64,000 nucleotides of DNA from a bacterium (GCA_040390065.1 JAZJZE010000004.1:64001-128000), one strand, 5' to 3'. Positions 21,843 to 42,800 are shown, numbered from the stretch's first letter. A program made the numbers and translations. Notes: a model not told the origin generated them from the sequence alone.

Positions 21843-21844
21843 TC

Positions 21845-23182: not shown

Positions 23183-23191
23183 GCAACCTAG

Positions 23192-24624: not shown

Positions 24625-24625
24625 A

Positions 24626-26418: not shown

Positions 26419-27626
26419 ACTTCATCCGCAGGGGCAGGGCCAGCCAATCCCGGACTCGTCGGGCGCAGGCTCCACGCCACCATCGCCGCCGCGACGAGCG
26501 CCACGGCCCCCAGGACCACGAAGGTGTCCAAGAAATCGGACCGCGATTTGAAGAAGCCCGCGGCCACGGCGCCCGCCCAGCCGCCAAGGTACGCCACGAC
26601 CAACTGGATGCCGTGGCCGAGTCCACCGCTGCGCCCGGCGAGGCGACTCACCTGGCTCGGAAGGACCGCCGACAGGACGGCGTGCGCCGCGAAGAAGACG
26701 CAGCCGGCGACGGCCACGACCCAGAACGAGGACTCCAGCCGGAACAGGGGCGCTGCGACCGCCAACGCGACGAGGGCCACGAGGATGGGTTGCCACGCGG
26801 CTCCACTGCGGTCGACGGCCCGGCTGGCAAGCCCCATCACCGCGAATGCCACGAGCAGGACGATGGCCAGCGTTCCGTCGCCGATGTGGACGAGGACGTC
26901 CTGCTGGAAGTCGAACATCGTGGCGCGCATGGCGTAGTTGATGGTGAAGCCGGCGAGGGCCAAGCCGAGGACGGGCAGGCCCAGGCTGCGGCGCGGCTCG
27001 GCGAGGCCGGGAATCGGCGGGGGCAGTGGGCGCAGCAGGATGGGCAGGCTGGCGAGGGCGCCGAGGGCGGCGGTGATCCAGAAGAGCGATGCAAACGGCA
27101 TGAGCCCCGGGTGCGCCGTGCTGCCGACGAGAAGGGGGCCAATCACGAACCCGAGGAACACGCCAATCCCTGCCGGGACGCCGACCATCGCCATCGCCAT
27201 GGTGCGACGCTCGGCGGGAACGGTCTCGCCCACGGCAGCCATCGCCGAACTCGACACTCCGCCGAGGCCTTGCAGAAGCTGCGCGGCAATCAGCGGCCAA
27301 ATGCTGTGGGCCATGGCGCTTGCCGCGGCGCCCGCGACGAAGACGAATGTTCCCGCGAGCAGGACGGGCCGGCGGCCGACGCGATCCGACAGGACCCCGG
27401 TGATGAGTTGTGCAAGGGCCATCGTCACGGCGTAGGCGCCAAAGGCGATGCCGGCCAACACGTCCGCCGACGCCGCCGACGTGCCCGCCGGGACGAGCGT
27501 CTTTGCGTACTCGGTGAAGCCGAGGGTCGTCAAACTGAACGCGAAGACGCGCGTGAACACGATCGCGCTAGCCGTCGCCACGAGCCCAAGCTCCGCCTTG
27601 GTAAAACGGCTTCGCGGCGCAGCCAC
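26415..27626 (-). CDS. MFS transporter
   Basis: G.LSDRVGRRPV motif A; about 12 TM segments. Confidence 0.9.
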   Translation of the reverse strand: MAAPRSRFTKAELGLVATASAIVFTRVFAFSLTTLGFTEYAKTLVPAGTSAASADVLAGIAFGAYAVTMALAQLITGVLSDRVGRRPVLLAGTFVFVAGAAASAMAHSIWPLIAAQLLQGLGGVSSSAMAAVGETVPAERRTMAMAMVGVPAGIGVFLGFVIGPLLVGSTAHPGLMPFASLFWITAALGALASLPILLRPLPPPIPGLAEPRRSLGLPVLGLALAGFTINYAMRATMFDFQQDVLVHIGDGTLAIVLLVAFAVMGLASRAVDRSGAAWQPILVALVALAVAAPLFRLESSFWVVAVAGCVFFAAHAVLSAVLPSQVSRLAGRSGGLGHGIQLVVAYLGGWAGAVAAGFFKSRSDFLDTFVVLGAVALVAAAMVAWSLRPTSPGLAGPAPADEV

Positions 27627-27698
27627 GACGCCCCCTGCCTCCTCCCGGCCAAAAGGGTTGCGTCATCCACTCAAATACGGCGGGCCTGATGGACCGGC

Positions 27699-28478
27699 AT
27701 GGGTCAGATGCGGTTGCGTCCGGGCGATTGGCTGATGGTTCTCCTGCCAGTGCCGTTCTACGTCCTCCTTTCGAGTTGGATCGGCCTCACGGGCAAGCCG
27801 TCGTTTCCCTGGGAGAAGGGAGCCGCATCGTTCTTCGGGTCCGTGTGGCAAGCCAACATCGGCGCCGACGTCCTCTTTGCCCTAGGCAGCGCCGGCGTGT
27901 GCTTCGGTTCGCTCTTCGCCGTCGCCTACGCTTGCCGCCGCATGCCGCCCGGGTGGCCCGGCTTCGTAGCGGCCGGCGCCGCGGGCCTCTCCATCCTTCT
28001 GAACTGGCTCGTCTACGGCCTGAGTTTCATGGCGATGTTTCCCGACTGGTGGCAGAAGAACATCAGCTTCGGCGACGGGGGCAACGGCATGAACTTCCCC
28101 GATTCCATGCGCTTCGTCTGGGACTGGGCATGGCCGACCCTCGTGTTCTTCTCCCTCGTCATCCCGCTCGTGTTCTGGGGCATCCTGGAACTGGTCAACG
28201 CGTCGAGACGCAAGGCGGGGACACCCCCAGGATGGACGCCGGCACCCCCGGGGCCCCCTTACGCCTCGCGCCCCACGCCGACATGGCCACCCGCCCCCGC
28301 ACAACCCGCGCAACGCCCCGCGGCACCCTGGCCCCAACCGACACGCGCCCCCGCCCCCCCGCGTGCGCCCATGAAGCCAACCCAACCCGGGCGTATGCCT
28401 CCACCGCAAGCTCCGCGGCCACCGCTGCGCCCACCGGGGAGCCCGCCCAGGGCGGGGCCGCCGCAACGAAAGGCGTAG
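27699..28478 (+). CDS. Membrane protein with Pro-rich C-terminal tail
   Basis: About 4 TM segments then P/A/R/Q-rich tail; last base of the stop codon is the first base of the transposon TSD. Confidence 0.65.
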   Translation: MGQMRLRPGDWLMVLLPVPFYVLLSSWIGLTGKPSFPWEKGAASFFGSVWQANIGADVLFALGSAGVCFGSLFAVAYACRRMPPGWPGFVAAGAAGLSILLNWLVYGLSFMAMFPDWWQKNISFGDGGNGMNFPDSMRFVWDWAWPTLVFFSLVIPLVFWGILELVNASRRKAGTPPGWTPAPPGPPYASRPTPTWPPAPAQPAQRPAAPWPQPTRAPAPPRAPMKPTQPGRMPPPQAPRPPLRPPGSPPRAGPPQRKA

Positions 28479-28513
28479 GGGCCACCGGTTGCTTCCCGTA
28501 AATCAGGGGGTGT

Positions 28514-28548
28514 GCCGTAATGCTGGTTCAGCAGGCCGTAATGCTGGT
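28514..28548 (+). repeat. Subterminal direct repeats GCCGTAATGCTGGT x2 (21-bp period)
   Basis: Copies at 28514-28527 and 28535-28548; inverted copy ACCAGCATTACGG at 41042-41054. Confidence 0.85.
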
Positions 28549-28625
28549 GGGAAGGCAGCTGCGGGCACGCATGGCATGCGTCCACGTAAGATGCTCAAAG
28601 TTGGGCGCCGGAAGGGGTCTGGCAC

Positions 28626-29492
28626 TCAACGGCAGCGGGTGGCTGGCGTCCAATAGAAATGCTCGAACGAAGGCGAAGGCAAACCGCATGCCGCGAAGGT
28701 CGTCCCAATTAGGGTTCGGGCTTCGTCTTCCGTCCCCGGAGAACTTTCCGGGCTTCGAAAGATTACGGTGACGTGGTCGTTTGCATCGACATGTACGCCA
28801 GGGTAGGGCGTGTCTCCTGGCGGGCATACGCCTAGAGAACGGTAGTCAAATTCGAACGTCCAGTCGCCAACGGATTGATGGGTCTTGTTCGGTTGACTTG
28901 CCCCGAGTTCCTCGTAGAGTGCGGAAAGCCGCAGTGGTAGTGCCCCCTGCCAGTTGATTGCAGGGTAACCATAGGTCGGGGTGTACGGCTGGCGGCTCCA
29001 TTCGACGGCAAGCTGCGTCCGATTGATGGAAGACAGGGAAGTTGTCCTTTCCAGGAAATCTTCCATTCCCGCCGTCGAATTTGGTGGTCCGCCGTATTCC
29101 AACGTGATGTTAACTGGGTCTGCGCGCCAGTATCTGCTTGTGGGCGCCCTGCCGCCCGGCTCAATCCCAGCCGATGGCATGTTCGAAGGCATCCAGGAAA
29201 CGGCCAACAACTTGACGTCGCCATGGAAGGCCCGGCTGACGCTCTGGTTGTAAAAAGGAAGACCTTGAATGTCACCCCAGTAGCCCGTCACCGTACCGCT
29301 AAACCCGCTGCCAGGCGTGGCACGCTGCTGCGCAGCCACATAGACAGAGGGCTGATCCCAGGATGCGGCGCCTGGTTCATCCCTGCATCCGAACCCGCCG
29401 AGACAACCGGCCACTAGGAGCGCCAGAGGCACAATCGCGGCTTGGGCGACCAGACGACCTGCACCTGAAATCGAGGCGGAGCCTTCGTGCAT
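28626..29492 (-). CDS. Lipoprotein of unknown function (candidate immunity protein)
   Basis: Start inferred at MHEGS; LLVAGC lipobox; 11 nt downstream of the giant hydrolase gene. Confidence 0.7.
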   Translation of the reverse strand: MHEGSASISGAGRLVAQAAIVPLALLVAGCLGGFGCRDEPGAASWDQPSVYVAAQQRATPGSGFSGTVTGYWGDIQGLPFYNQSVSRAFHGDVKLLAVSWMPSNMPSAGIEPGGRAPTSRYWRADPVNITLEYGGPPNSTAGMEDFLERTTSLSSINRTQLAVEWSRQPYTPTYGYPAINWQGALPLRLSALYEELGASQPNKTHQSVGDWTFEFDYRSLGVCPPGDTPYPGVHVDANDHVTVIFRSPESSPGTEDEARTLIGTTFAACGLPSPSFEHFYWTPATRCR

Positions 29493-29503
29493 GGCCACTT
29501 CCC

Positions 29504-32500
29504 CTAGCACGTCATCACGGTCGCTCCGGGGTCCTTCACCTTGGCAAGTAGAATTCCTTGGCCGGACGCGCTGGAGATGGCACTGCCTGCCAGGCCAGGG
29601 CGCGCCGCCGCATTGGGGGGGCCAAGAGTCCATGCGTTGGAGGCTATGTCGTACCGTTGGACGGCGTTCGTGGCCACGTTGTGGTTGAAGCCACCCACCA
29701 CACATATGCCTGATGCTCCACTAATCGCGACGGCGTCTTGGACGGCCAGTGGCATGTCCGGAATCGTTCCCGGCGTCGCCCAGGCGCCGACGCAGGCATC
29801 GAAGATGTCAACGGAGGCCAACTCGGATGCCGGAGCGCCCCAACTGTTGCCGCCAGCGACAATCATGGGGGCACAGAATCCAGGAATGGGAGCCGAACTC
29901 AAGGTCACGGATTGCACGTCGGCGCGAGGCGTCGGCATGGGCATCACCCCAAGCGACCACGTCAAGGTCGAAAGGTCCAGCACCTGTACGTTGCCTTGCG
30001 CTCCGCACCCATACATGACGGCACAAGTGCGTCCGCCGAAGACGAAGATTTGGTTGCCCCAAGCCGCCGCTCCCGCCCCCGCTACAGCAACGGGCATCGG
30101 GTTCGGCAGCGTCGTCCAGGCACCCGTCGTGGAATCGTAGGCGTCGACGGTACCGCAAACCTTGGTGGGGCCGCACGCGTCGCTCTTGCCACCAATGACG
30201 TAGTAGACCGTTCCGACGGATACGCCGACGGCTTGGCTGCGCCGCGTCGGCGCCGGAGGCAGGCCATACCAAACCTTGGTCACGTCATTGTAACACGCGG
30301 CAGCATCGGAATCACTTGTCGGATCGTTGTCATGCAAGAGCCCGTTGCTTACGACCACTGTTCCAGAGCCCACGCTCCCGGACGGCGGCGCGCACCAGCC
30401 CGCATACGCGGCGGCCGGCGCCGAAAGCAATGGCGCCGCCACGCAGGCGGGCGGCGTGCCAACCATTCCGGCCGGGCACGTTGCGCCGGTGCATGACGCG
30501 AGGGCATCTACGAGGGCCGAGCCATCAACGGGCAAACTCAATCCCTTGATGTTCGTCGTGATGCAGCGAACCACGGGTGGCGGGGCCCCTTCCAAGCAGT
30601 TGAGCAGGCGCTTGAGTTGCGGCGCCATATTTGGCACGTCATCGCCGGGCGGCAACTGCGGTGGGATGCCGATGGGTACGCACGGCACGGTCGGGAATGA
30701 GTCGAAGGGCAGGCTGTTGGCCAGGCACGCCACGGTGTGGTTCAGGTCCAGTTGCACGGCCTCGGCAATCACGTTGTCGGGGCTGGACAGGAGGATGCTG
30801 GCGCATGTTCTGCGCCACTCGCCAAACGTGATGTATACGCCGACGGTGCGGCTGTCTTGCCGCGTCACGCCGCCATATGTGGCCGTAATCGTGACCGGGT
30901 AGACGCCCGGCAGCGCGTACCGGAAGGAGCCGGCATACACGCCGTCTCCTGCACTTGCATCGGGTGCGACGCCGTCGTCATGCAGGTCGACCGTGACGGT
31001 CGCGTTCGTGATGGAATCAAGTGTCGTCGCAGTCACGACTGCGCCTGTCTGGGGGACACCATTGAGCCAGACGACGCCGCGGAGCGTCGCGTCGCTTGCG
31101 ACCTGTACCATGGTGTCAGTGCGGTCGCCGACGGCAAGACTGCCGTGCATGACCAAGTCGCCTTGCGGTGGGTCCGCCGCGACGCCGGCATACGTGATGG
31201 CAATCGTCCAGTCTCCGTCCGCTGGGTGGTCAACAAAGAGCGACCCAAACGGGAACGGGGCAACGTCGAAGGCCCCCGACCATCCAATGTCCGTGCCAAG
31301 GCCTTGGACGTCCGAGAAGGAGTTGACGGTTCCGTCCGGCCGCGTCACGGCAACCATCGCGCCTTGCAAGGATGCTTCCGAGTGGACGTTGAGGGTCATC
31401 TCGTCGAGGCCAGAGGCGGACACATGGAAGGTGGCAATCGAGTTGCCGCCGGCAGTGGTCATGGCGGCAACGAGGCGGGCCCGCGTTTCGTCTTTGTGCG
31501 GATCATCTGTGTACGCAGCGGCGGGCGCGCTGGCGGACAGAAGCGAGAAGCCGGCCCCGGAGTCGTTGCAGATTCCCGAGTTGCGGTAGCCTTCGAGGTA
31601 GCTCGTCGTGAGGTCGCGGAAGAACGTCTTGTCCATCATGCGCGATGTGCTTCCCGGGGCGTTGTAGTCGTGCCCGTATCCGGGGTCGTGGCGGATGTAG
31701 CTGCAACTCTTGGAGTCGCGGTTGTGGGTTGCGCTGTCCGTGCCGACCGCGCCGTCGCCGCAACTCCCGTCATGCCAAAACGCTCCCGCTTGGCATACGT
31801 CGCCGGCCAGGTGGAAGTAGCCGATACGCGGGTGGTTGTGATACGTGTTTTCAAGGGCGTCGGGCGTCGGGTACCACGAGGCCCCAATTACGGGGTTGGC
31901 GTCGGTCGCATCCATGAGTTCCGGGTCAATTTGGACGTTGACTTTTGATCCATCGCCCCACGCGCTGTTGCGGGTGGTGGTGCCGTCTCCCCACCACCCG
32001 TATTTCCAGCCCTGGTACCGCACGTAGAGGTCCCTGCCGCTGCCGTCAACGTAGTAGCTTTGTTGGCCCTTGGGCTTACTCGTCGCTTGGCAGCCCGAGC
32101 CCATGCTGGTGAGGCTTTGGTCGCAAATGTTGTACTTGTATTGCACGACGTTCGAGCCGAGATTCGGCGTTCCCATCGTAATGAGGTTGGCCACCATCCT
32201 TTCCGGAGTGTGCCCCTCCTGGGCCAGCTTGGTTTCAATCATGTAACGCGCCACTAGACCGCCAGCGCTGTGCGCAATCACATCTACAGGACCCAAGAAT
32301 GCGATGTTTACGCCGTCGGAATCTTGCGTCCGTGGCACGTTTCCGAAGTCCGTTTCAAAGTTTCCGTCTTTCAGGCCCCGTTGGTATCCGGCATGAATTG
32401 CATTGATGTGCCCTTCGAGCGTCTGCGTCGAGCTTCGGAGGTCTTGCTTGCCGTTGTATTCCACGTTGCTGAAGGCTCGGTTGTCTTTGGCCCATGACCA

Positions 32501-35125
32501 TGGATTTTGGCCGAGGTTGTATTCAGCCGAGGACTTCATCCCTGACGCGAAGTCGTCCGCCCAGTTGGCAACGTCATCAAGGTAGGCCTTTTCGTTGGCA
32601 AGATAACCCGCTGGGTTGAAACCGTGAACGAAGACCAATGGCGGAGCCACAAGTTCGGCCTGCACGGTCTGCACCGAGAGACGGAAGGTGCCTGCCCCCG
32701 TTGGCAAAGGTTCAGCGACGAGGCGGTAAACCGTCTGGTAGTGGCTATCGGTCTGTAGCATGTCGACGCCAGCCAGATGCGTGCCGATGCCGGTATCCGG
32801 CGTCAATGTCCAGCACGACTGGCTCGCGCACAGGTGCAGCGTTCCGTACATGTCGGCATCCGGCATCGTCGTCCAGTGGCCACCGACGGCGTCGTAGCGT
32901 TCGAGGTGAGCGAACTTGACGTAGGCTCCGTCCTTGGCCGGGTCCGGCGGCATGGCCGAGCCCCCTAGGTCAAGGCGGAAATGCATCCAGAACTTGGAGA
33001 ACGTCGTCCCGTCAGCGTTCCTGAGGTCCATGTGACGATTGAATTGCCCCCATTCAATCAGGAAATCGTTCTCATCCGCGCCCGCGTCCGTGGTCGCGTG
33101 GACGATGTGGTCGCTCCAACCCATGGGTGAATTGTCGTCGCCCCATGGCGGGCAGATCGATGTCGGTGGATTGACTTGGCCAGCACAGATGGGAATCGTC
33201 GCTCCAAGGGTGTTCGCGCTGCCCGCCAACGTGGCCCACGTCCTGCCAGTCGTTTCGGCGCCCGGCCCCTCCGGCAATGTGGCGTCGTCGGGCTCGTAAG
33301 CCGTCACCTTGTAGTCGTATTGACCCCCATTGACGGTCGGCCCGCCCGCTCCATTGTCCACGAACGCCAAGCCAGGGCCGGACCAGCGCGGCGAGCCCCA
33401 GTCGGTGGCGCCGTGGTCGCGGCGGTACAAGTGGTACGCGGTGGCGGGAAGATAGCCCGTGGGTACGGGCGTGCTCCAATCCAACTTGTTCTCCAGTGCA
33501 TGGTCGCCGTAGTGGAACGCCAAGGCTTGCGGAGCGCCCGGCGTAGTGTAGGGCGCGGCGCTTGGGTCGCCGCTACTGGCGGGACTGGTTCCGACGGAGT
33601 TCTGCGCCGTCACGCGGAAGTAGTACGTCGTCCCGGGCACGAGGGCGATTCCCCCCGGACCGACGGTCGTCGCCTTCGACGTGGTTGCCGACGTGGCCGT
33701 CGAATCGACTTCGGCTCCGGCCGCAGTCGAAGCCAGGATGTGATATGTCACGGTTGAGCCGCAATTCGCCACTGCGGCCCACGCGACGGTTACTGTGCCG
33801 GCGCCGGGTCCGGCCGTTGCCGTGACTCCGGTGGGGGCTGCGGGGATGTCGGGTGGCGTCGTGGCTGACGCAGTTGCAGGGTCGCCCCAGCCCCATGCGT
33901 TGTGCGCCTTGACGATGTAGGACTTGAGGGTGCCGCATGGGATTCCTGTCTGCGTGTAGGGCGACGTGGTCGCCCCCGGGATGGCCGCGCCGGTGGCGGC
34001 GTCGTACAGTTGGTAACCAGTGATGGCGCTGCCACCGTTACTTGTGGCGGGCGTCCAGGCGACTTTGATGGAGTGCGACGTCAACGCGGTAGCGGTAATC
34101 GAGGCCGGGCTGCCGGGCGTCGTGGCGAGCGTGATGGTGGCGCCGTTGCTGGCGGCACTCGTGAAGTGGTAGTTTACCGCCTTCACGGTGTACGTGTAGG
34201 AGATGCCCGGCGGCACGCCGTCTTGAATCCAGAACGTCGTACCCGAGGCAACACTCCAGACGGAGTTCGCCGAGTCGGAGCGGTAAATCAGGAATGCCCA
34301 GGCCGTATCCCCGCCCCAATACGTCGGCGCGTTCCAATACAGCGTCACTTGGCCAAGAGCGGACTGCTCCACCGTCAGCGCCGTCGGAGCGCCGGGCGTA
34401 TCGTAGTCCTTGTCATGGACTTCGGCGCTCGTGCTCTTGACGGTGCTTGTCACGACGGCCTTGACCTTGTAGTAGTTCTCCTGCCCCGGAGTAAGCCCGC
34501 CATGCTGGTACGTGAAGACGTTGTTCGGCGCCGTATAGACGAGCGTATTCTCGTTCCCCGGCGAGGTCCCCCACCAGACCTCGTAGTTCACGACCGGGTA
34601 GCAGAACGTCCCGGTGGCCTGGCCCCATGACACCGTGACTTGCTTGGGGCCGGGACCCCACTGGGCACTGGCCGAAGGGACTGTCGGGGTTTGCGGCGTG
34701 GCCGAAGGCGGGTCAATCGTTATGGAACGCGCGTTCGAAACGTACTTGGGGCCAATCGGAATGTCGCCCGGGGCCGTTTCCATGTCGAAGGCATCCCACG
34801 TGTAGCTTCCGGCCGTGCAGAATGGCCAGTTCCAATTGTAGCTTGATGGAAAGGACGTCTGGTCTATGAGCCACGACGATTGACCCGTACTAATGTCAAC
34901 GCCCGTGCGGATGTGAGTTCCCGCGTCCGCATGACTCGTCCAACTTAGCAGCACGTTGCCCGCGGGAAAATGCGAGCCGGAAGCCGGGCCGTCAAGGGTC
35001 GGCCAGGTCGCTGCCGCCTGGACGCCATGGGCCAGAACGACGACGGCACCGAATGCCGCGAGGGTTCCTAGCGTGAGGACGGCGGCGGAAACAGGGGCCG
35101 GCGGGGTAGGTAGGCGGGACTTCAT
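29504..35125 (-). CDS. ~1870-aa secreted protein: Fn3 repeats + alpha/beta hydrolase (lipase-like) + choice-of-anchor-X-like + Kelch repeats
   Basis: Signal/TM; about 5 Fn3 units (V.W..P...Y.V.A.N); VFVHGF, IAHSAGGLVAR, TMGTPNLGS, DGAV; LHDDG..PD..AGDGVY; Kelch YVIGG, IFVFGG, PMPTPR. Confidence 0.85.
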   Translation of the reverse strand: MKSRLPTPPAPVSAAVLTLGTLAAFGAVVVLAHGVQAAATWPTLDGPASGSHFPAGNVLLSWTSHADAGTHIRTGVDISTGQSSWLIDQTSFPSSYNWNWPFCTAGSYTWDAFDMETAPGDIPIGPKYVSNARSITIDPPSATPQTPTVPSASAQWGPGPKQVTVSWGQATGTFCYPVVNYEVWWGTSPGNENTLVYTAPNNVFTYQHGGLTPGQENYYKVKAVVTSTVKSTSAEVHDKDYDTPGAPTALTVEQSALGQVTLYWNAPTYWGGDTAWAFLIYRSDSANSVWSVASGTTFWIQDGVPPGISYTYTVKAVNYHFTSAASNGATITLATTPGSPASITATALTSHSIKVAWTPATSNGGSAITGYQLYDAATGAAIPGATTSPYTQTGIPCGTLKSYIVKAHNAWGWGDPATASATTPPDIPAAPTGVTATAGPGAGTVTVAWAAVANCGSTVTYHILASTAAGAEVDSTATSATTSKATTVGPGGIALVPGTTYYFRVTAQNSVGTSPASSGDPSAAPYTTPGAPQALAFHYGDHALENKLDWSTPVPTGYLPATAYHLYRRDHGATDWGSPRWSGPGLAFVDNGAGGPTVNGGQYDYKVTAYEPDDATLPEGPGAETTGRTWATLAGSANTLGATIPICAGQVNPPTSICPPWGDDNSPMGWSDHIVHATTDAGADENDFLIEWGQFNRHMDLRNADGTTFSKFWMHFRLDLGGSAMPPDPAKDGAYVKFAHLERYDAVGGHWTTMPDADMYGTLHLCASQSCWTLTPDTGIGTHLAGVDMLQTDSHYQTVYRLVAEPLPTGAGTFRLSVQTVQAELVAPPLVFVHGFNPAGYLANEKAYLDDVANWADDFASGMKSSAEYNLGQNPWSWAKDNRAFSNVEYNGKQDLRSSTQTLEGHINAIHAGYQRGLKDGNFETDFGNVPRTQDSDGVNIAFLGPVDVIAHSAGGLVARYMIETKLAQEGHTPERMVANLITMGTPNLGSNVVQYKYNICDQSLTSMGSGCQATSKPKGQQSYYVDGSGRDLYVRYQGWKYGWWGDGTTTRNSAWGDGSKVNVQIDPELMDATDANPVIGASWYPTPDALENTYHNHPRIGYFHLAGDVCQAGAFWHDGSCGDGAVGTDSATHNRDSKSCSYIRHDPGYGHDYNAPGSTSRMMDKTFFRDLTTSYLEGYRNSGICNDSGAGFSLLSASAPAAAYTDDPHKDETRARLVAAMTTAGGNSIATFHVSASGLDEMTLNVHSEASLQGAMVAVTRPDGTVNSFSDVQGLGTDIGWSGAFDVAPFPFGSLFVDHPADGDWTIAITYAGVAADPPQGDLVMHGSLAVGDRTDTMVQVASDATLRGVVWLNGVPQTGAVVTATTLDSITNATVTVDLHDDGVAPDASAGDGVYAGSFRYALPGVYPVTITATYGGVTRQDSRTVGVYITFGEWRRTCASILLSSPDNVIAEAVQLDLNHTVACLANSLPFDSFPTVPCVPIGIPPQLPPGDDVPNMAPQLKRLLNCLEGAPPPVVRCITTNIKGLSLPVDGSALVDALASCTGATCPAGMVGTPPACVAAPLLSAPAAAYAGWCAPPSGSVGSGTVVVSNGLLHDNDPTSDSDAAACYNDVTKVWYGLPPAPTRRSQAVGVSVGTVYYVIGGKSDACGPTKVCGTVDAYDSTTGAWTTLPNPMPVAVAGAGAAAWGNQIFVFGGRTCAVMYGCGAQGNVQVLDLSTLTWSLGVMPMPTPRADVQSVTLSSAPIPGFCAPMIVAGGNSWGAPASELASVDIFDACVGAWATPGTIPDMPLAVQDAVAISGASGICVVGGFNHNVATNAVQRYDIASNAWTLGPPNAAARPGLAGSAISSASGQGILLAKVKDPGATVMTC

Positions 35126-35283
35126 GCAATCAGGCTCCACGGTGGCTCTCGGGGGAAAAGGAGGCAAAGACGTGAGACACCAAACACGAATCCGAGAGTG
35201 CTCAACAACGCCAAGAAGCGCTGTCTAAGCGATTTCTGGAGGCTGATTCGGCAGTTGAACGTTTCGGGCCGTATCCCATTTGA

Positions 35284-35565
35284 ATGGCAACCGTGTCTGG
35301 CACCACAATGCCCCGCCTCAAGAAGGGAGCGCCGCCGCCTGAACCCCTCGTGACGGTTGGCATCAAGCGGGGTGTGGTGGACAAGGTTGACCACTACTTG
35401 GACACGCACCCGGAATCGGCCTTCAAGAACCGCAACGAGTTTGCCACGCACGCGATTGCCGACAAGCTGCGGGACCTGGAACGGGAAGAGCATGAGCGAC
35501 TCCTGATGGAAGCCTACAAGTCCGGCAAGGCCGGGCCGTTGGAGCAACTGCGCCCCAAGGCCTAA
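35284..35565 (+). CDS. Ribbon-helix-helix (CopG/MetJ-like) regulator
   Basis: VTVGIKRGVVDKVD...FKNRNEFATHAI pattern. Confidence 0.7.
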   Translation: MATVSGTTMPRLKKGAPPPEPLVTVGIKRGVVDKVDHYLDTHPESAFKNRNEFATHAIADKLRDLEREEHERLLMEAYKSGKAGPLEQLRPKA

Positions 35566-37112
35566 GCGAAGGCGGGATCTCGAACGCGCGAGGCCACCCG
35601 TTGCAGTGTTGCACGCATCGAGAACAGCAGGGCCCCGCCTTCCAAGGATTCCCAACGCGGGTCTTCCAGTGCCTCCTGGAACGTGGGGAAGTGGTCGCGG
35701 CTCAAGCGCTCCAGCCACACGACGGCCTCCTGGTCCTTGCCGCACTCTTTCGCCTCCTCGGCGCACAGCCGCGCGACTCCGGCTCGCTCGCGGCCTTCCG
35801 GCACCAATGGGTAGGCTTCCGTGAAGATGGCCAATGCTGCGGCATGGTGGCCGCGCTGCCGGGCGATGCTGCCCTCCAAGACGCGGCCATCCAACGATGC
35901 GGGGAACGCCTTCAGGCAGCGATGAACCAACTTGGCCGCCTTGGCGAAACGGCCGCGTAGTCGTGCCTGATTGGCCATGTGCCAGTACGCCGCGCCGCGC
36001 CGCTGGCGAAACGTGGCCGGCAGCGAGAAGCCAGTCGGTTTTCCCGCCCAGCGAAGCCACGAATAGCGAATGTTCGGACGTCCCGCGACGACGGCGCCCG
36101 TCAGGAGAGTTGCGGCAAGTGTCCAAAACCACACCGACGGAACAGTGCCAGCCGTCGGGCCTGTAACGACCTGCCCGGCCAGCGAAATCTCGCCTGCGGG
36201 TCCATCCATGTCGACGTGGAAGGGCTGCATGACGTCCTGGCCCGCGACGAGAAGCGGCGGTGGTGCCTGCACGTCCAAGCGCTGCGACTGGAGCGTCTGA
36301 ACATGGTCGCCAACCGTCACGGGCCCCGAGGCGACTAGGGATACTGTGCTCGCGATGAGTTCCGCTAGGCCTTGCGTAATGACGAGGGCGGGCTTCGCAG
36401 AGGGCAGGGTCAATGTTCCGTTCTTGACGAAGAGGTAGACTTCCACGTCGCGTCCTGCGACTGGATTGTCCGGAAGCAGCGGCGAGGGTTGGGAGCCCGT
36501 CTTGAGGTCGGTGCTTTGCCCGCCTGATTGGAGGGTGGCATCCCATTCCCACAGCGAGAGTTGGAAGTCGCCGCGGACAGTTAGTGCAGTGCAGTCTTGC
36601 CAGGCCAGTCCGCGCGACGTGTCGCGCTCCAGGTTTCCGCGCTGAGGTGTCACGAGGGGCACGCGGACGACTTTCGCGGCCTTCGTCGCTTCCGTCTGTC
36701 CGCAATTTGCTTCGACCGTGGGGGGAACTTCGCCGGTTAGGGAAGCGAGATTCCATCGGTGGCCGGCTCGGTTTGCCGTCCCGCGGACTGTGGCTTGGTC
36801 GTAGTCGGCTGGGGTTGTCGTCGGATTGATGCGCTTGGGCGTGGACGTGGGGTGCAGGGAAATGTCGGCGGAATCCGTTTCCGCCCGAATGTGCGTAGCG
36901 CGCAGCGCGAAGGCTGACGGGGCCAGGCCTGGAGTATCCGTGGCGTCCTCCTCGAATGCCACCGTCAAGGAGCTGCGGACCGTGCCCTTGGATGTCTGCA
37001 AGGAGGAGGCCGAGAGGTGAGCCTGAATCGTCAGGCCCTCCGCCGCTTGCGCTACCGCCGCGAAACACAGCAGGAGCACGATTGCCGATGTAGCCCACCG
37101 CATTGGTTTCAC
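35562..37112 (-). CDS. Single-pass membrane protein with extracellular beta-rich domain and cytoplasmic TPR-like repeats
   Basis: Signal peptide, TM (VWFWTLAATLLTGAVVA), TPR-like helices (GRFAKAAKLVHRCL, GHHAAALAIF). Confidence 0.7.
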   Translation of the reverse strand: MKPMRWATSAIVLLLCFAAVAQAAEGLTIQAHLSASSLQTSKGTVRSSLTVAFEEDATDTPGLAPSAFALRATHIRAETDSADISLHPTSTPKRINPTTTPADYDQATVRGTANRAGHRWNLASLTGEVPPTVEANCGQTEATKAAKVVRVPLVTPQRGNLERDTSRGLAWQDCTALTVRGDFQLSLWEWDATLQSGGQSTDLKTGSQPSPLLPDNPVAGRDVEVYLFVKNGTLTLPSAKPALVITQGLAELIASTVSLVASGPVTVGDHVQTLQSQRLDVQAPPPLLVAGQDVMQPFHVDMDGPAGEISLAGQVVTGPTAGTVPSVWFWTLAATLLTGAVVAGRPNIRYSWLRWAGKPTGFSLPATFRQRRGAAYWHMANQARLRGRFAKAAKLVHRCLKAFPASLDGRVLEGSIARQRGHHAAALAIFTEAYPLVPEGRERAGVARLCAEEAKECGKDQEAVVWLERLSRDHFPTFQEALEDPRWESLEGGALLFSMRATLQRVASRVRDPAFA

Positions 37113-37604
37113 CTAGGGAAGGCACTCGTCTCGAATGCCATACGCCACGAAGGGGGGGTACGTGTAGATGGCCAGCGACAGCGGGTCGCAAGGCACGCCG
37201 GGGACGCCGCCTCCGCCCTTTGCGACCCAGAGGGTGTCGCTTTGGGGGCTCTCGACGCTGGATGCGACGGCCTTGACGTAGTAGTAGTGGATTCCCGAAA
37301 TGGTAGCCAGATTCTCCGAGTATGATGTCGTCGTGGTCGTTGCGGCAAGGGCATCGTCGCGGTAGACGTTGTAGGAATCTGGTGTTCCAGAGGTGGGGGC
37401 GAGCCACGAGATGGTTAGCATCTGCCTGGAGGCGTCGTAGCTGCCGGAGACGCCGCGCGGCGCCGAGGGCGGCATCACGCACAGGGGCCCGTCGAGGACG
37501 ATGGCGCAGCCGCCCACCGTGACGGGGCAAGCCGCGACGGAGCCGGCAAGAATCAATAGAACCGCGATGCCCAAGTGGAAGCGCAGGAGGACCACCGAAT
37601 CCAA
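37113..37604 (-). CDS. Small secreted Fn3-domain protein
   Basis: PSAPRGV...ISWLAP...YNVYRD...YYYVKAV; Cys-bounded C-terminal tail. Confidence 0.75.
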   Translation of the reverse strand: MDSVVLLRFHLGIAVLLILAGSVAACPVTVGGCAIVLDGPLCVMPPSAPRGVSGSYDASRQMLTISWLAPTSGTPDSYNVYRDDALAATTTTTSYSENLATISGIHYYYVKAVASSVESPQSDTLWVAKGGGGVPGVPCDPLSLAIYTYPPFVAYGIRDECLP

Positions 37605-37649
37605 CCCATCCTCTCCGGCACCTAAGCGTATTGGCTAGAATGAGCCCAT

Positions 37650-38987
37650 TCATGTGGCGAGCCTCCTGGACTTGCTCGTTTTCACGGTCATGCTGGCATA
37701 GAGCCCATCCAATTCCCGCCAGGCCGCTTTCGCCAGGATTTCGACGCCGCCGGTGAAGTCGATTTCGACGCCCTCCCGCTCGGCGAGGTACACGAGACGG
37801 GCGAGGTTGTGGGCGATGACCATGCACAAGACCTCGTTGCGGCGGGCCTCGGGGTCGCGTGAGTAGACTTGGTCGCCAAGAAACGCCTTGAAGGCGTGAT
37901 TTCCTGCTTCGGCGTTGCTGCGGCGGTTCGCCTTGGCCACATAGGCGGCGGGGTCGAGGCGGGCGGCGTTGACGACGCGCTTGAAGGCGCGGTTGCGCTC
38001 GTAGTGGTCCGGGTTGGCGTTGCGCTTGAGTTTGACTTGGGCATCAATGCCCCGGCGTTGGAGGTACTCGAAGATGTACGCGGCCTGGTACGCCTTGTCG
38101 CCACCAACCTCCTTCACGTCCAACATCAACAACGCGCGCTCAAGAAGCGGCAAGAGCCACGGGGCCTCGCCAAACGGACCGGCCTGCGAGTGGATGCCCG
38201 CAATCATCGTGAACCTGTATGTCCACAAGATTTCCGTGAAGAGCCACGCGTGCTCCCGGCGCTCACTGCGGCGATGGTGTTTCTCCTCGAAGAAGGCCGT
38301 GAAGTGCTGCGTCGTGAGACCCGTGCCGTCGGGGTGGATGAGCGACTCGTAGCTGCGCACCGGCCACAAAGTCAAGAGGGCGAGTTTTTCGAGGATGACG
38401 TGCGTGTCCGGGTGGGCGAGGAAGCGGCTGATGGTGCTGCGTCCGCAGGCGCCGTAGGGGTTGTGCTCGACGTGGCCCGGGCGTTGCATGTTGCCTTGGT
38501 TGTGGTTGAGGTTGCCGCGCTCCGCCACCCGCATTACGGACTGGTAGACGAGGGCGTGGGTGGCCTTGAACGGCCGCCCGCGCCTGCGTTGGCGTGGCGC
38601 CTCGATGACGGGCAAACCCGAGCGCAGCAAGCGCCCAAGGTATTCCGGCAGAAGGGTGGGGACGAGTTGCCAGGCTCTTGCTTCAAGGCCGTGGTCGCGC
38701 GCCGTGTCGCTCTTGCGAAACACCGCCACGCCCTCTACTGCAACGAGGCCTTCCTGGATGAGGACGGCCAGGATGTGGCTGCACGGGTGGTCTTGGTTGA
38801 ACTTGGGGTCCGTGCGGCAGCGCCACTGGTCCCCAGAGCGGTAGACTTGCACACGCCGGCCCGGAGTCCGCAGGCTGGCGACGTCGAAGTGGTCGGGGTC
38901 GACTTGGACGACGCCGTCGGGGCGGTCGAGGATGAGGCGCGCGTTGTGCACGACGCGGCGCGGCAAGCGCGCCAGGTCCAGGCTCAC
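37650..38987 (-). CDS. DDE transposase (IS4/IS5-superfamily-like) with N-terminal SWIM-like Zn finger
   Basis: WRCRTD...PCSHILAV; HPDGTG, GGDKAY, R-x3-E-x6-K (RSNAEAGNHAFK), NEVLCMVIAHNL; GGAGG upstream of GTG GTG (38990/38987). Confidence 0.88.
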   Translation of the reverse strand: MSLDLARLPRRVVHNARLILDRPDGVVQVDPDHFDVASLRTPGRRVQVYRSGDQWRCRTDPKFNQDHPCSHILAVLIQEGLVAVEGVAVFRKSDTARDHGLEARAWQLVPTLLPEYLGRLLRSGLPVIEAPRQRRRGRPFKATHALVYQSVMRVAERGNLNHNQGNMQRPGHVEHNPYGACGRSTISRFLAHPDTHVILEKLALLTLWPVRSYESLIHPDGTGLTTQHFTAFFEEKHHRRSERREHAWLFTEILWTYRFTMIAGIHSQAGPFGEAPWLLPLLERALLMLDVKEVGGDKAYQAAYIFEYLQRRGIDAQVKLKRNANPDHYERNRAFKRVVNAARLDPAAYVAKANRRSNAEAGNHAFKAFLGDQVYSRDPEARRNEVLCMVIAHNLARLVYLAEREGVEIDFTGGVEILAKAAWRELDGLYASMTVKTSKSRRLAT

Positions 38988-39622
38988 CACGTCAGCCTCC
39001 GGCGCGGCTTCGGGAGCCCCGAGTAGCCCAGCAGGTTGTCGAGGTAGGGGTCGCCGGTGGGGATGATGGGTTCCGGTTTGGCCCAAATGCCGTCGGGGAT
39101 GGTCATGCCCGGCCGGCGACCAGACGAGGTGGGTGCGGGGGCGTCCGTGGGTTTGTTGGCGCCCTTGAGGTTCTTGACGAGGGCCGCCAAGCCCAGGGCG
39201 CTGGCCCCGAGGCCGGCGCCGATGAGCCAACCCGGAACCTTTGCGTCGCCGCTCATCGGGGGCGGTGGGGCGGCCTGCTCGCGGACTTCGGGCGTGGGTT
39301 CTGGTGGCTGGTTTGTCGTGTCGGGTGGCGCTGCGGCGGGGAGGGGACACGGCGCAGTGGCAGGCGGAGGTTGTGGCGTCGCGTCGGGCGTGGTTGGGGC
39401 CGCGGGCGGGTCGGGCGTAGGGTTGGCTGGCGCGGGGTCGGGTCCTCGCCACCTCAAGCCGACGACGGTTGGCTTGCCGTCCGGGCCCAGGGGGTGCTTG
39501 AGATCGTGGACGCGGCGGTACTCGTCGTGCTCGGGGTCGTTGTACGTGGCGAGGTGGCCGCCGCGGCCATGGGCATCCCGAAACGTCCGGGCGCAAACGG
39601 GGCACAGGGAACTCATCAGCAA
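38984..39622 (-). CDS. C2H2-like zinc finger + Pro-rich linker + TM protein, coupled to the transposase
   Basis: CPVCARTF...GGHL...H; TM GWLIGAGLGASALGLAALV; stop overlaps the transposase start (GTGA). Confidence 0.7.
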   Translation of the reverse strand: MLMSSLCPVCARTFRDAHGRGGHLATYNDPEHDEYRRVHDLKHPLGPDGKPTVVGLRWRGPDPAPANPTPDPPAAPTTPDATPQPPPATAPCPLPAAAPPDTTNQPPEPTPEVREQAAPPPPMSGDAKVPGWLIGAGLGASALGLAALVKNLKGANKPTDAPAPTSSGRRPGMTIPDGIWAKPEPIIPTGDPYLDNLLGYSGLPKPRRRLTW

Positions 39623-39661
39623 ACTCTATGGAGCGCGGCCGTCATATGCAGGAGACAGAGG

Positions 39662-40321
39662 TTGATTGATTTGCAGAAGCGACTCTCGCGACGACCCACG
39701 AAGCGCACAAGTAAGCCTCACCCATTTAGCGTATCAAAAAGCAAGCGCCGCGGCCATTTCCTGACGCTGCGCGACCGTGCCTTGATTCTGGAGGGGCCGG
39801 AACCCCTGCGCCGGACGCCGGTGCAATACACGGGGCGGCGCGTGGACCGCGAACGCCGCGCCTATAAGCAGGCGTACCGCCGCGTGTGGCGGGAAGCCAT
39901 GCGGGACGCCCGCGGTGCCCTCATTGACTTGTCCTTCCTGGCGGAGCACGCCGAAGCGGATTGGCTGTACGACCTCGTGACGACCAACGAGCCCCTCTAC
40001 GAATTAACCGACGAGGCGGAGGGAACGAAGGACTACCGCAGCCGCGTCAACGTCATGGGCTACGACGCTGCCCCCTTGGAGGCCCTACTGCGGTCCTTGG
40101 CGGGTCGCGTGGCGTGGGAACGCTGGCCCACCGTCACGAAGGAGAAACCCGACGCGGAAGCCGTCTCGGGTCGGGGAGGCTCCTTCGTCGTCGTCCACCT
40201 CGCCGCCGCCTTGGAAGAAGGCCTCAACAGCGAGGCCGCGGCGGCGTCGCACCTCGTGCAAATCGTCAACCGCGAACCCACCCCCACAGCGTGGCCACCA
40301 AGGGCGCCCCGCCTCGCCTGA
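39662..40321 (+). CDS. Hypothetical protein
   Basis: Coding-like composition; FLTLRDRALILEG...REAMRDARGALIDLSFL; start uncertain. Confidence 0.55.
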   Translation: MIDLQKRLSRRPTKRTSKPHPFSVSKSKRRGHFLTLRDRALILEGPEPLRRTPVQYTGRRVDRERRAYKQAYRRVWREAMRDARGALIDLSFLAEHAEADWLYDLVTTNEPLYELTDEAEGTKDYRSRVNVMGYDAAPLEALLRSLAGRVAWERWPTVTKEKPDAEAVSGRGGSFVVVHLAAALEEGLNSEAAAASHLVQIVNREPTPTAWPPRAPRLA

Positions 40322-40669
40322 CGGTGCCCCCGCCCAGGCGCCCACGACGGTGCCTTCGCCCGCCTCGCTGCAAGGTCCGCGGCGGAGGATTCAGAGGATT
40401 CAGCACCCAAGCCTTCAGCACCCATCCAACAGGAAGGAAAGAGGGTGCTGAACCGTCCTGGGTGCAGAAGCCTCCCGTGACAGTTCGCGGGTGCTTGCCG
40501 GGCACCGTGGGCACCCTCCAGGGAAGGTGCCCCTGGGAAGGCGAAGCACCCTCCCCGTGAAGCGCGGGCAAGGCGGCACCGAGGCACCGCGCAGCCAGGG
40601 CGGGGCCTTGGTCGAAGGCTGCCGGTTGGCGCGCGATGCCTTGATGAAGCCAAGAAGTCCTCCAGCAGT

Positions 40670-41008
40670 GTGGCCGATCTCTTGCTGCTGGCGCTTGCCC
40701 AGGCGTTGAAGGCGGCCACGCCGGACTGGAAACCCTACGCCAGCGGGACGATGGGCAGCAGCCTGGAAATCCGCAACCATTCCGGCCTAGAAGTGCGCGT
40801 CGTGACTTCGGCCGGGCAAATCCAGGGGCCCTGGCGTTGGGACGGCGACGACCAACTCCTGGGCAACGCCGTCGCCGTTGCCGGGGATGAGGCCGCCCCC
40901 AGGATTCTCTACGCCATCCTCCAACCACTTGCCGACCAAGTACGGGTCGCCGTCGGCACCACCGCCGCAGGCGGTGCCGAATCCTTCCAGGTTTTCAAGA
41001 CCAAATAG
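40670..41008 (+). CDS. Hypothetical protein near the right transposon end
   Basis: Coding-like ORF ending just before the subterminal motifs; start uncertain. Confidence 0.45.
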   Translation: MADLLLLALAQALKAATPDWKPYASGTMGSSLEIRNHSGLEVRVVTSAGQIQGPWRWDGDDQLLGNAVAVAGDEAAPRILYAILQPLADQVRVAVGTTAAGGAESFQVFKTK

Positions 41009-41116
41009 GGCCTGCCGTAAATCGCCGGGCCCGCTCGCAGAACCAGCATTACGGGAAGCAGTCGGGGCCACCGTTTCCCTTATCTACAAAACCCGTGTCG
41101 GCGCGATTGCGCCTCT

Positions 41117-41192
41117 GGGAGATTAGCCGAGACAGGTCCAAGGCAGCGGACTCTTAATCCGCCATTCACCGGTTCGAATCCGGTATCTCCCG
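41117..41192 (+). tRNA. tRNA-Lys(CTT)
   Basis: Acceptor GGGAGAT/ATCTCCC, anticodon arm GCGGA-CTCTTAA-TCCGC, T arm ACCGG-TTCGAAT-CCGGT; CCA not encoded. Confidence 0.95.
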
Positions 41193-41314
41193 CTACTTTA
41201 CCCGCAAACCCTTTTCCCCCCTCGTTGCTTTCCCACTCTAATGGGACCCAACGGGGAAATCAGGAGTAGTTTCGCCTCACCCTCGACGGGAAATGACCCC
41301 CGGGCAGGTGCCTG

Positions 41315-41869
41315 ATGGCACTCGACAAGACGCTGACGATCAAGCAGCGCCGGGTCGACATCTACCTGCCCACCTTGGACGCGAGGGGCAAGTGGATTGC
41401 GGCCGCTGCCAAGCGCAACCTGAGCCTCTCCGCGTTCGTCTTCCAAGCCATGGAGATGGAGCTCCAGAAGGACGCCCTGGAGGGCCTGGAGCGGGCCAGT
41501 GCGGCAGACTTGGAGAAGGAGCTGACTGACCTTCGCTTGGCCAATGCTGACCTGCGCCGCCGCGTCGAGGAACTGAACGTCCTGAATCACCGCGCCGAAG
41601 CCGACCTGGCGGAATACCGGGCGCAACACATCGTCGGGCCCGAGCCGGTCAAGCACCTCGACCCCCGCCTCATCAGCATCCTATCCGAAGCCAAGGGACG
41701 CGACGGCCGCTTCCGCGCCCTCGACGTGGCCGAACTGCGGCGGGAGCTGCGCCTGAACCCCAAGAACCCCACCGAATTGCAGGCCCTGTCACGCCAACTC
41801 GAGTACCTCGAGGTCCACAAAGTCGTCCGGCGCTCGCCGAAGGGGTGGGTGTGGAATGACAAGGAGTAA
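41315..41869 (+). CDS. Integrase-associated accessory protein (RHH-like N-terminus, coiled coil, wHTH-like end)
   Basis: RVDIYLP...W..AA...LSLSAFV; heptad segment; overlaps the integrase start. Confidence 0.75.
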   Translation: MALDKTLTIKQRRVDIYLPTLDARGKWIAAAAKRNLSLSAFVFQAMEMELQKDALEGLERASAADLEKELTDLRLANADLRRRVEELNVLNHRAEADLAEYRAQHIVGPEPVKHLDPRLISILSEAKGRDGRFRALDVAELRRELRLNPKNPTELQALSRQLEYLEVHKVVRRSPKGWVWNDKE

Positions 41870-42785
41870 ACCTAACGCCGGGCTCCTCGAGGCCTACGAA
41901 CGGGACGCCAAACTGCAAGGCCTCTCCGACCTGACTCTGAAGGCCTACAAGCACGGCATCGAGACCTTCCTTGGCTACCTGGGGACTAATCCAGTAGCCA
42001 AGGTCACGATCAAAGACCTGGCCGAGTACCTTGGGAACCAGAAAGACCAGAAGCTGGACCCCCGCACCCTCAGCGGCCGCATCTCGGCCCTGTCCAGTTT
42101 CTTCGAATTCCTCGAGTTCGAGGGCAAGATCAAGGGCAACCCAGTGCCCGGCTTCCGTCGGCGCTACCTTGGGACGCTCCGGCGAGAACTCGGCAAGAAG
42201 AAGTCCGACCGGAAGCTCGTCGCGGTCGAGCAACTGCGGGCAATGCTACAGACCGTGGTCGACGCACGCGACCGCTGCATCATCGGACTGCTGGCCAAGA
42301 CTGGCATGCGCCGCGACGAACTCGTGCAACTCGATGTGCGCAGCATCGACCTCACCAAACAGACCGTCGACATCAAGCCGCACCCCAAGCGGACGAACTG
42401 CCAGGTGTTCTTCGACGACGAGACTGGTCGAGTCCTGCGGAGGTGGTTGGCGGTTCGCCGAGCACGCACGGGAACGGACGCCGGACCGCTGTTCGTCGGC
42501 CAGCGAGGAAACCGCATCAATGGGGATGCGGTGAATGACGCCGTCTCAGCCGCGGCCAGGAACGTGGGCCTGCACGACCCAGAAGGACCCTTGAAGGACC
42601 GCTTCACGGCTCACAATCTGCGGCATTTTTTCACCACGCACCTTCGACGTGGCGGCATGACGCGCGAGCACATAGCGTGGCTTCGCGGCGACGCCGGCAA
42701 CGACTCGATGGACGTGTACATGCACATCGACCCAGACCAGGTTCAACAGGCGTATCGGAGCGCGATTCCGCAACTCGGGCTCTGA
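41856..42785 (+). CDS. Tyrosine recombinase/integrase (archaeal, SNJ2-like LRGD motif)
   Basis: KTGMRRDEL, HNLRH, LRGD, SMDVYMH (catalytic Y). Confidence 0.93.
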   Translation: MTRSKPNAGLLEAYERDAKLQGLSDLTLKAYKHGIETFLGYLGTNPVAKVTIKDLAEYLGNQKDQKLDPRTLSGRISALSSFFEFLEFEGKIKGNPVPGFRRRYLGTLRRELGKKKSDRKLVAVEQLRAMLQTVVDARDRCIIGLLAKTGMRRDELVQLDVRSIDLTKQTVDIKPHPKRTNCQVFFDDETGRVLRRWLAVRRARTGTDAGPLFVGQRGNRINGDAVNDAVSAAARNVGLHDPEGPLKDRFTAHNLRHFFTTHLRRGGMTREHIAWLRGDAGNDSMDVYMHIDPDQVQQAYRSAIPQLGL

Positions 42786-42800
42786 CCGCGAAGGCGCACC

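Follow-up and report, generated by a model that had tools for sequence, protein, structure and literature searches.

Upstream of the tRNA-Lys(CTT) gene of an uncultured archaeon lies a 12.6-kb block of DNA with a transposase gene inside it, and the locus raises the question whether this block moves as one unit or is a genomic island in which an insertion sequence (IS) has settled. The stretch that we analysed, referred to as the window, is 64,000 nucleotides long (G000:C4:64001-128000) and belongs to a genome of 2.68 Mb in 50 contigs. Our results speak for the first possibility: positions 28487-41063 are very probably a single non-composite (unit) transposon of 12.6 kb with one internal DDE transposase. 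One pair of inverted ends, a duplication of the target, an internal transposase and passenger genes are all present, no IS pair flanks them, and an empty target is found across species. With at least four passenger genes between its ends, the element falls outside the strict definition of an IS, i.e. a compact element with transposition genes only.

The borders are marked by a perfect 9-bp direct repeat, GGGGCCACC, with copies at 28478-28486 and 41064-41072, and the element between these target-site duplications (28487-41063) measures 12,577 bp. The first base of the left copy is the last base of the stop codon of a flanking open reading frame (ORF), 27699-28478, and the right copy is native sequence that is single in relatives. 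Directly inside the duplications stand the terminal inverted repeats: GGTTGCTTCCCGTAA on the plus strand at 28487-28501 and, on the minus strand at 41049-41063, a sequence whose reverse complement is GACTGCTTCCCGTAA. They match at 13 of 15 positions and extend to about 27 nt if an indel of 18-19 nt is allowed (one aligned pair 17/18). A second block common to both ends, CCGTAATGCTGGT, had been missed in the first-pass annotation of this DNA. It is present as two direct subterminal copies at the left end (28515-28527 and 28536-28548, plus strand, together 28515-28548) and once at the right end (41042-41054, minus strand), where it overlaps the inverted repeat so that the two occupy 41042-41063. 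The subterminal copies are likely binding repeats of the transposase.

These ends are not expected by chance. With at most one mismatch the 12-nt end core matches only the two ends within the window (expected 0.17), and two or more matches occurred in 0 of 100 shuffles. In the whole 2.68-Mb genome the exact core is found twice and the 13-mer three times, every copy at these ends; a third copy of the end motif was not found anywhere in the genome. The left-end subterminal region also holds the genome's sole cluster of three CCGTAA inside 90 nt. The 9-mer GGGGCCACC alone is not rare (three copies in the window, and at least three in 24 of 100 shuffles), and it carries weight because its copies abut both inverted ends. 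A Logan contig from run X1 covers 26500-42500 with zero differences, i.e. a second assembler agrees; this contig was probably built from the same reads and hence is not independent support. The other two runs of the source study contain only short, low-identity pieces of the stretch, which says nothing about polymorphism either way.

Relatives give a view of the site before insertion. Of the 41 related genomes searched, 22 have a conserved copy of the gene on the element's left side (26415-27626), and tRNA-Lys(CTT) stands beside this conserved flank gene in 7 of 11 relatives' loci. In the window, the tRNA-Lys(CTT) promoter region and gene occupy 41073-41193 on the plus strand, with the TATA box TTATCTAC at 41080-41087, starting 8 nt past the duplication, and the tRNA gene itself at 41117-41193. 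In four of the seven loci (L010, L011, L014, L015) homology upstream of the tRNA starts at window position 41063-41069, which is the right repeat; in the remaining three the tRNA alone aligns. L015 has a single target copy, GAGGGCCACC, followed by the TATA box. In L011, which keeps the gene order of the window, the 23 nt that precede the element in the window (GCAACG..GGC..GCC.CACC) have their match in the spacer, which then continues directly into the promoter. By these alignments, the relatives hold an empty site with a single target copy upstream of the tRNA-Lys TATA box.

Two further features of this site were noted. The tRNA-Lys gene with its promoter of about 50 nt is inverted relative to the flank gene in six of the seven relatives (L009, L010, L013, L014, L015, L016), L011 alone keeping the orientation of the window; the inversion is very small and local, and two mobile elements have used the site. 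In L011, AAAAGGGTTGC joins GCAACG directly, without the approximately 800 bp that intervene in the window. These 800 bp (27665-28463) contain the ORF 27699-28478, whose product resembles a multi-pass membrane protein and has a proline-rich tail, and the block may be an older separate insertion beside the left end.

The transposase gene lies at 37650-38990 on the minus strand and encodes 446 aa. The product is a DDE enzyme of diverged IS5 type whose SWIM-like N-terminal domain is vestigial. It scores above the gathering threshold of Pfam DDE_Tnp_1 (PF01609; E = 2e-7, 31.4 bits, cut-off 23). Residues D233, D310, E373 and K380 and an R(3)E(6)K motif (R..E..K) are invariant in an alignment of seven homologs, and the D, D, E and K columns (D220, D297, E360 and K367 in that numbering) remain invariant in 42 sequences including distant ones. 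A structure model built from the 42-sequence alignment (pLDDT 87.5) finds the ISCth4 and Tn5 transposases as its best solved matches, with a TM-score of 0.39 to Tn5. Immediately upstream lies a partner gene for a 212-aa protein (38984-39622, minus strand) with an N-terminal C2H2-like zinc finger, a proline-rich linker, a hydrophobic helix and a conserved C-terminus; the type of zinc finger is a lead only, as the protein atlas search scored below 0.9. The partner gene adjoins the transposase gene in most family members. In the window the GTG start of the transposase overlaps the stop codon of the 212-aa gene, which suggests translational coupling of the two. The same overlap led us to drop the alternative of a programmed frameshift from the zinc-finger gene into the transposase.

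Much of what the first-pass annotation had claimed can be kept. Coordinates and shuffles agree with its 15-bp inverted repeats (13/15) and perfect 9-bp duplication around 12.6 kb. The transposase, which it had put about 2 kb from one end and about 9 kb from the other with no flanking IS pair, lies 2,073 bp from the right and 9,163 bp from the left end, and neither a second transposase nor an integrase was found among the 10 window ORFs scanned with Pfam. Its assignment of the enzyme to the IS4/IS5 superfamily is upheld by hidden Markov model classification (DDE_Tnp_1 above cut-off) and the intact D, D, E triad. The empty site that it expected upstream of tRNA-Lys in relatives was located, with a single target copy (L015, L011), in other species only. 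The 'SWIM-finger' label is poorly supported and needs correction: Pfam SWIM (PF04434) stays below its cut-off on this protein (E = 0.13, 12.3 bits against 19.6), and CxCxnCxH is reduced to C..CxH. A canonical CxC..CxH SWIM is present in the transposase of a distant element, L026, which is 24% identical; the finger of the window enzyme is vestigial.

The element has relatives. A second transposase copy of 58% identity, again with a partner gene, is found on contig C43 of the same genome. Homologs occur in 14 of 41 relatives at E <= 1e-3, in 10 of the class's 197 genomes when E <= 1e-40 is required (eight of the 10 from the window's own order), at four metagenome loci, and in 66 protein clusters of a 5.8-billion-protein collection, where the named sources are Thermoplasmatota, Thermoplasmata or Halobacteriales archaea. 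Eight loci were scanned for a direct repeat of 9-10 bp abutting inverted ends of 16 nt. One relative is the metagenome element L069 (11.5 kb, 9-bp duplication, ends matching at 14/16), whose transposase is 65% identical to that of the window and whose ends, GGCTGCGTCCCGTGATGCTGG, are clearly homologous to the window ends. GC content at third codon positions (GC3) is 0.91-0.95 in its host flanks versus 0.62-0.80 inside, and it carries a type I restriction-modification system (two HsdM, HsdS, HsdR) and Kiwa (KwaA, KwaB). The C43 element (12.6 kb, 9-bp duplication, ends 12/16) carries McrC, an McrB-like ATPase, two methylases, a CARF protein and a TIR-like protein. At its left border the homology of four relatives ends at 5391-5397, where the left repeat lies, a short way upstream of the promoter of elongation factor 2. 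At the right border a flanking 462-aa ORF has no counterpart upstream of elongation factor 2 at 13 loci of 12 relatives, and the empty site was not confirmed there. The element of G012:C24 (9.9 kb, 9-bp duplication, ends 12/16 that match the C43 ends at 14/16) carries Kiwa and other genes. Relatives lack about 14 kb at this locus, more than the element, and the right border alone is consistent. About 4 kb by the promoter-distal end (L035, ~4141-8221), including a CheR-PAS protein, is also absent in relatives; elements may have landed at one site repeatedly, or an unrelated deletion may have occurred.

Two members of about the same size contain a capsid module: G017:C2 (12.3 kb, 9-bp duplication, ends 14/16) and G029:C91 (12.4 kb, ends 15/15), which have the end core GCGTTYC.AAA in common. 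In G029:C91 the inverted ends are both termini of the whole contig. The distant L026 (G039:C2, 389-2792) is a compact element of 2.4 kb with a 9-bp duplication and ends of 13/16 starting GGCTTTGCC; it comes from a 32%-GC genome of the same class and has many subterminal AAAAG repeats and one passenger gene for a secreted-looking 199-aa protein. Across the family the cargo varies and the transposase, its partner, the type of ends and the 9-bp duplication are constant. The exact end pattern of the window was found in its own genome only among 38 genomes of the order, the ends being too diverged for it to serve as a family probe, and CCGTAA clusters gave nothing clear at the relatives' loci when used as a family signature. 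The homologs with distant inverted ends, 9-bp duplications and variable cargo that the first-pass annotation had proposed to look for thus exist (L069, C43, G012:C24, G017:C2). Its view of a family that moves extracellular-function genes has to be given up: three relatives carry defence systems, four loci have the capsid module, and secreted or membrane cargo is seen in the window copy only.

A block of six or more genes is common to the four capsid-bearing loci (G029:C91, G029:C108, G017:C2 and L070). A model of a 283-aa protein from this block (31 sequences, pLDDT 89.5) matches the capsids of STIV (E 2.7e-15, TM-score 0.78), PM2, PRD1 and PBCV-1 and, in a viral library, Bacillus phage Wip1 (TM-score 0.82). 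On the strength of this model we take the protein to be a double jelly-roll major capsid protein. Directly upstream of its gene, G029:C91 encodes a 236-aa P-loop ATPase, for which a sequence search of the PDB gave matches at the P-loop level only. The capsid protein has 36 homolog clusters, mostly on contigs of 9-14 kb. G029:C91 (L039, 1-12432) also encodes a DNA methyltransferase, a zinc-finger protein and a transposase of the same type; PHROGs recognised only the DNA methyltransferase among its 10 ORFs. Similar capsid-bearing loci are L038, L041/L042 (G017:C2) and L070, and the integrated G017:C2 copy, with its 9-bp duplication, carries tRNA-Leu(TAA). An element of the G029:C91 type looks like a transposable, tailless archaeal virus. 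In a tree of 13 transposases the virus-borne copies are paraphyletic around the cargo-borne ones, with G017:C2 branching first and the G029/L070 clade nested (key fork 80/90). The tree is small and midpoint-rooted; its branching order hints that the cargo transposons arose from a virus.

The family also appears to land in a particular kind of place. At seven of seven readable junctions (window, C43, L069, G012:C24, G017:C2, G007:C10 and L070) a TATA-like box starts 6-10 nt beyond the duplication, outward from one end, a rule that was chosen after the data had been seen and for which the window and L069 only have strongly supported ends, while L070 shows one end. The left end of G029:C108 has no box and was not counted, its other end being off the contig. 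On five large contigs the rule is satisfied by 5.0% of all positions and by 9.8% of intergenic-like positions. The box in the window is that of the tRNA-Lys promoter and is conserved in relatives; the box at C43 belongs to the promoter of elongation factor 2 and is conserved in all 11 relatives' loci shown. A box of this type with a GTCG-like motif after it precedes many of the genome's 52 tRNA genes. The promoter is on the downstream side of the transposase in five elements and on the upstream side in two. Taken together this suggests promoter-proximal target choice. The target is restored by the duplication, so that at least 15 nt of native sequence remain upstream of the promoter and a further element could land at the same place. 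One could speculate that the extra DNA at the promoter-distal end (about 0.8 kb in the window, about 4 kb at G012:C24) is debris of older landings.

A possible course of events can be outlined as follows. The transposase is made from a two-gene operon with the small zinc-finger protein and would bind the inverted ends and the subterminal TGCTGG/CCGTAA repeats, while the partner might aid regulation or target choice. By analogy with IS4/IS5 enzymes, we suppose a cut-and-paste chemistry and insertion by a 9-bp staggered cut in the target; the element may still be active. The target could be read either as sequence (NNNN-CCC followed by a T-rich box) or as DNA bent by TBP and TFB. Here the element landed in a spacer of about 50 nt, just upstream of the TFB recognition element (BRE) and TATA box of the tRNA-Lys promoter, and such a landing leaves the promoter and both neighbour genes intact. 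The whole interval between the ends travels as cargo, in this case two pairs of secreted/membrane protein genes with older paralogs. Going further, we tentatively propose, as a reading that is possible without yet being probable, that one IS5-derived transposase with its zinc-finger partner drives both a double jelly-roll virus of about 12.4 kb and capsid-less cargo transposons with defence or surface genes, and that both are steered just upstream of the BRE/TATA of active promoters, perhaps via TBP/TFB-bent DNA.

How well does the unit transposon stand against other explanations? One of them is that the zinc-finger gene and the transposase form a two-gene IS in an unrelated genomic island and that the distal repeats are coincidental. 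IS5-type enzymes usually move elements of 1-1.5 kb, and the distant relative L026 is indeed a compact 2.4-kb element. However, no end-like sequence lies near the transposase: the inverted pairs found around 36800-41100 are all 70-88% matches in GC-rich coding sequence and none resembles the element ends, whose motifs are unique to the distal sites, while L069 has the same layout with homologous ends 11.5 kb apart. Close ends of its own, which according to the first-pass annotation would make the transposase a simple IS within an unrelated island, are therefore lacking, and we regard this explanation as very improbable. Slightly less credible still is that the block is part of a tyrosine-integrase island at tRNA-Lys and that the 9-bp repeat is an attachment (att) site. 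A tyrosine integrase and a serine recombinase do lie just past the tRNA, and the direct repeat at C43 reaches 17 bp. But that neighbouring island (41.2-53.7 kb), which has the features of a tRNA-targeting tyrosine-integrase island, owns an 18-bp att repeat (41177 and 53701) in the tRNA 3' end, on the opposite side of the tRNA. The 12.6-kb element, for its part, is bounded by inverted repeats and has no integrase inside 28487-41063, the 9-bp repeats of the family differ at unrelated loci, and no integrase domain was seen among the ORFs scanned in family members. Several observations nevertheless weigh against the unit transposon. The empty-site comparison is cross-species at 65-87% identity, with no element-free genome of the same species found, and the approximately 800 bp to the left of the element (ORF 27699-28478) are absent from the empty-site relatives as well. 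Neither an empty or excised allele nor a joint skipping the element was found among reads and contigs of the sequencing runs examined. The best NCBIfam model, the IS5-type NF033579, gives 2.3e-16 and 60.1 bits against a curated cut-off of 140; the enzyme is related to IS5 and lies outside the family by the NCBIfam rule. A mirror-repeat control at the same eight loci gave one match at 14/16, two at 13/16 and seven at 12/16, compared to two, one and seven in the real scan. The generic scan is weak alone, so each element was judged by independent support, and the 12/16 ends of C43 and G012:C24 rest on their mutual likeness. Finally, the repeat of C43 reaches 17 bp (5394-5410 and 18032-18048) because the first 8 nt of the left end recur in the right flank; this may be chance, a preference for end-like targets or an att-type site, and a recombinase att site is compatible with it.

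Other explanations accept the transposon and dispute its history or its landing. It could be a dead relic or be moved in trans, as a capsid-less derivative of the related double jelly-roll virus in which the virion genes were swapped for host-like genes. The paraphyly of the virus-borne transposases around the cargo-borne ones (13 sequences, fork 80/90) would fit such a derivation, as would inverted ends that differ at 2 of 15 positions plus an indel of 18-19 nt. Against it, the transposase gene has an open frame and its catalytic triad is intact, the duplication is perfect, and the supporting tree is small and midpoint-rooted. Moreover, tblastn with the capsid-module ORFs of G029:C91, a query set without the 236-aa ATPase ORF, found no capsid or ATPase remnant in the window element. 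We think this history unlikely, though one to be kept in mind. The closeness to TATA boxes could likewise come about without any target choice by the transposition machinery, if harmless intergenic insertions are the ones that survive. Spacers between genes are short and promoter-rich, the criterion is post hoc and several ends are weakly supported, all of which would favour survival; the narrow spacing, 6-10 nt at all seven junctions versus 9.8% of intergenic-like and 5.0% of genome-wide positions, argues for choice. Survival by itself is in our opinion an improbable account of this pattern, without being a negligible one.

As regards the cargo of the window transposon, most of it lies to the left of the transposase on the minus strand. 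The outermost gene is a 359-aa ORF with a lipobox-like LAGC and no known family (28626-29705); its paralog adjoins the paralog of the large protein on contig C1. That large protein (1887 aa, 29504-35167) is of a secreted type, with fibronectin type III repeats, a serine-esterase-like region and a Kelch beta-propeller (Pfam fn3 4.4e-19; Kelch families to 2.7e-23; DUF676 2.7e-4). It is followed by a 516-aa protein with a signal-like N-terminus and weak TPR matches (35562-37112; paralogs on C2, C9 and C1) and by a 163-aa ORF of no family (37113-37604). In another frame, which belongs to an overlapping 901-aa ORF (35122-37827), the segment 37113-37604 is similar to DNA next to the 516-aa protein's paralog on C2. 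The lipobox-like motif of the 359-aa ORF and the hydrophobic, signal-peptide-like N-termini of the 1887-aa and 516-aa proteins were read by eye from the translations, with no predictor. The four cargo genes have distant paralogs elsewhere in the genome (26-38% identity), two as neighbouring pairs. To the right of the partner gene, on the plus strand, an ORF with no assigned function (39371-40321) is conserved over ~39730-40280 at the same position in the G012:C24 element (46% over 184 aa). GC3 is 0.87-0.89 in host genes of the window versus 0.74-0.82 inside the element, and a PADLOC search for defence genes gave no match for six window ORFs.

The surroundings of the element are variable too. 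On the other side of tRNA-Lys a second mobile element spans window positions 41177-53718, between the two copies of the 18-bp direct repeat of the tRNA 3' end (41177 and 53701), and encodes the tyrosine integrase (41856-42785) and the serine recombinase (42801-43748); most of 41.2-55.5 kb is absent from this locus in relatives. Another variable block is located at ~19400-26400, where about 7 kb between the homologs of 19337 and 26583 is missing in most relatives (L008-L010, L012, L013, L015, L016); it includes a 582-aa protein with an ABC-type permease domain (24670-26418).

Regarding the significance of these results, the family adds a simple vehicle with a single transposase that moves 8-10 kb, including complete defence systems, between archaeal genomes, and its capsid-bearing relatives bear on the conversion of viruses into transposons and back. 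The landing rule and the link to a virus are the parts that most deserve pursuit. If the promoter-proximal rule is true, it amounts to a testable safe-site targeting, maybe via the eukaryote-like transcription machinery of archaea, and the enzyme could possibly be useful as an insertion tool with a predictable landing site. If the joint reading of virus and transposon is true as well, archaea would have their first known DNA transposon that targets promoters, with a prokaryotic counterpart of polintons or a non-tailed 'Mu' beside it, and the passage between virus and transposon could be seen in a living example.

Known archaeal elements differ from the one described here. According to the 2019 survey by Krupovic et al., bacterial-type DNA transposons carrying passengers were undetected in archaea (PMC6563490); since then Tn7-type elements (bioRxiv 10.1101/2025.07.27.667033) and aloposons (PMC8813620) have been reported there. 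Casposons are archaeal, at least 10 kb long and cargo-bearing, have inverted ends and duplications, and use Cas1 and a polymerase (PMC6563490); aloposons are likewise archaeal elements of at least 10 kb with cargo, integrate at tRNA sites and carry giant genes (PMC8813620). Neither has a DDE transposase of the IS5 type, unlike the window element. Tn7-like transposons are non-composite, often carry defence systems and use 'safe' sites by conserved genes (PMC8649781); they are bacterial and have recently been reported from archaea (bioRxiv 10.1101/2025.07.27.667033). The prokaryotic double jelly-roll viruses of Yutin et al. 2018 have tyrosine integrases and Cas1, and the word 'transposase' occurs 0 times in the main text (PMC5894146). 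Neither an archaeal transposon targeting promoter-upstream sites nor a Thermoplasmatota double jelly-roll virus that carries a DDE transposase was found in the literature covered, a partial set excluding supplements, and the supplementary tables of PMC6563490 and PMC5894146 could hold related elements.

Like a Tn7-like transposon, the window element is a non-composite carrier of cargo at a safe site, but it depends on a single IS5-type transposase, and no TnsA/TnsB/TnsC-type domains were seen among the ORFs scanned with Pfam (10 in the window, and those of family elements). The target duplication of Tn7-like elements is 5 bp and that of the window element 9 bp. In its enzyme the element is closest to the IS5 family: DDE_Tnp_1 with D, D, E and R..E..K is found in both, and IS5 is the best NCBIfam match. 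A 9-bp target duplication is present in the window element, L069 and L026, and together with ends starting GG(C/T) it recalls the IS903-like group, of which both are traits. Compared to IS5/IS903, the window element is about 10 times longer, has 9 kb of passengers, an extra SWIM-derived N-terminal domain, an obligatory-looking zinc-finger partner and an archaeal host, and its score is 60 versus a cut-off of 140. In its choice of site it recalls the yeast retrotransposons Ty3, Ty1 and Tf1, which insert a fixed short distance upstream of promoters or transcription starts, often of tRNA genes, and spare coding sequence. Those are eukaryotic retroelements guided by the transcription machinery via their integrase, whereas the window element is a DNA transposon for which contact with TBP/TFB is pure inference. 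The capsid-bearing subfamily differs from Polintons/Mavericks and bacteriophage Mu in that its enzyme is IS5-type and not retroviral or Mu-type, no polymerase was seen and the host is archaeal; like them it (and not the window element) brings together inverted ends, a target duplication, a DDE enzyme and a double jelly-roll capsid with a small ATPase.

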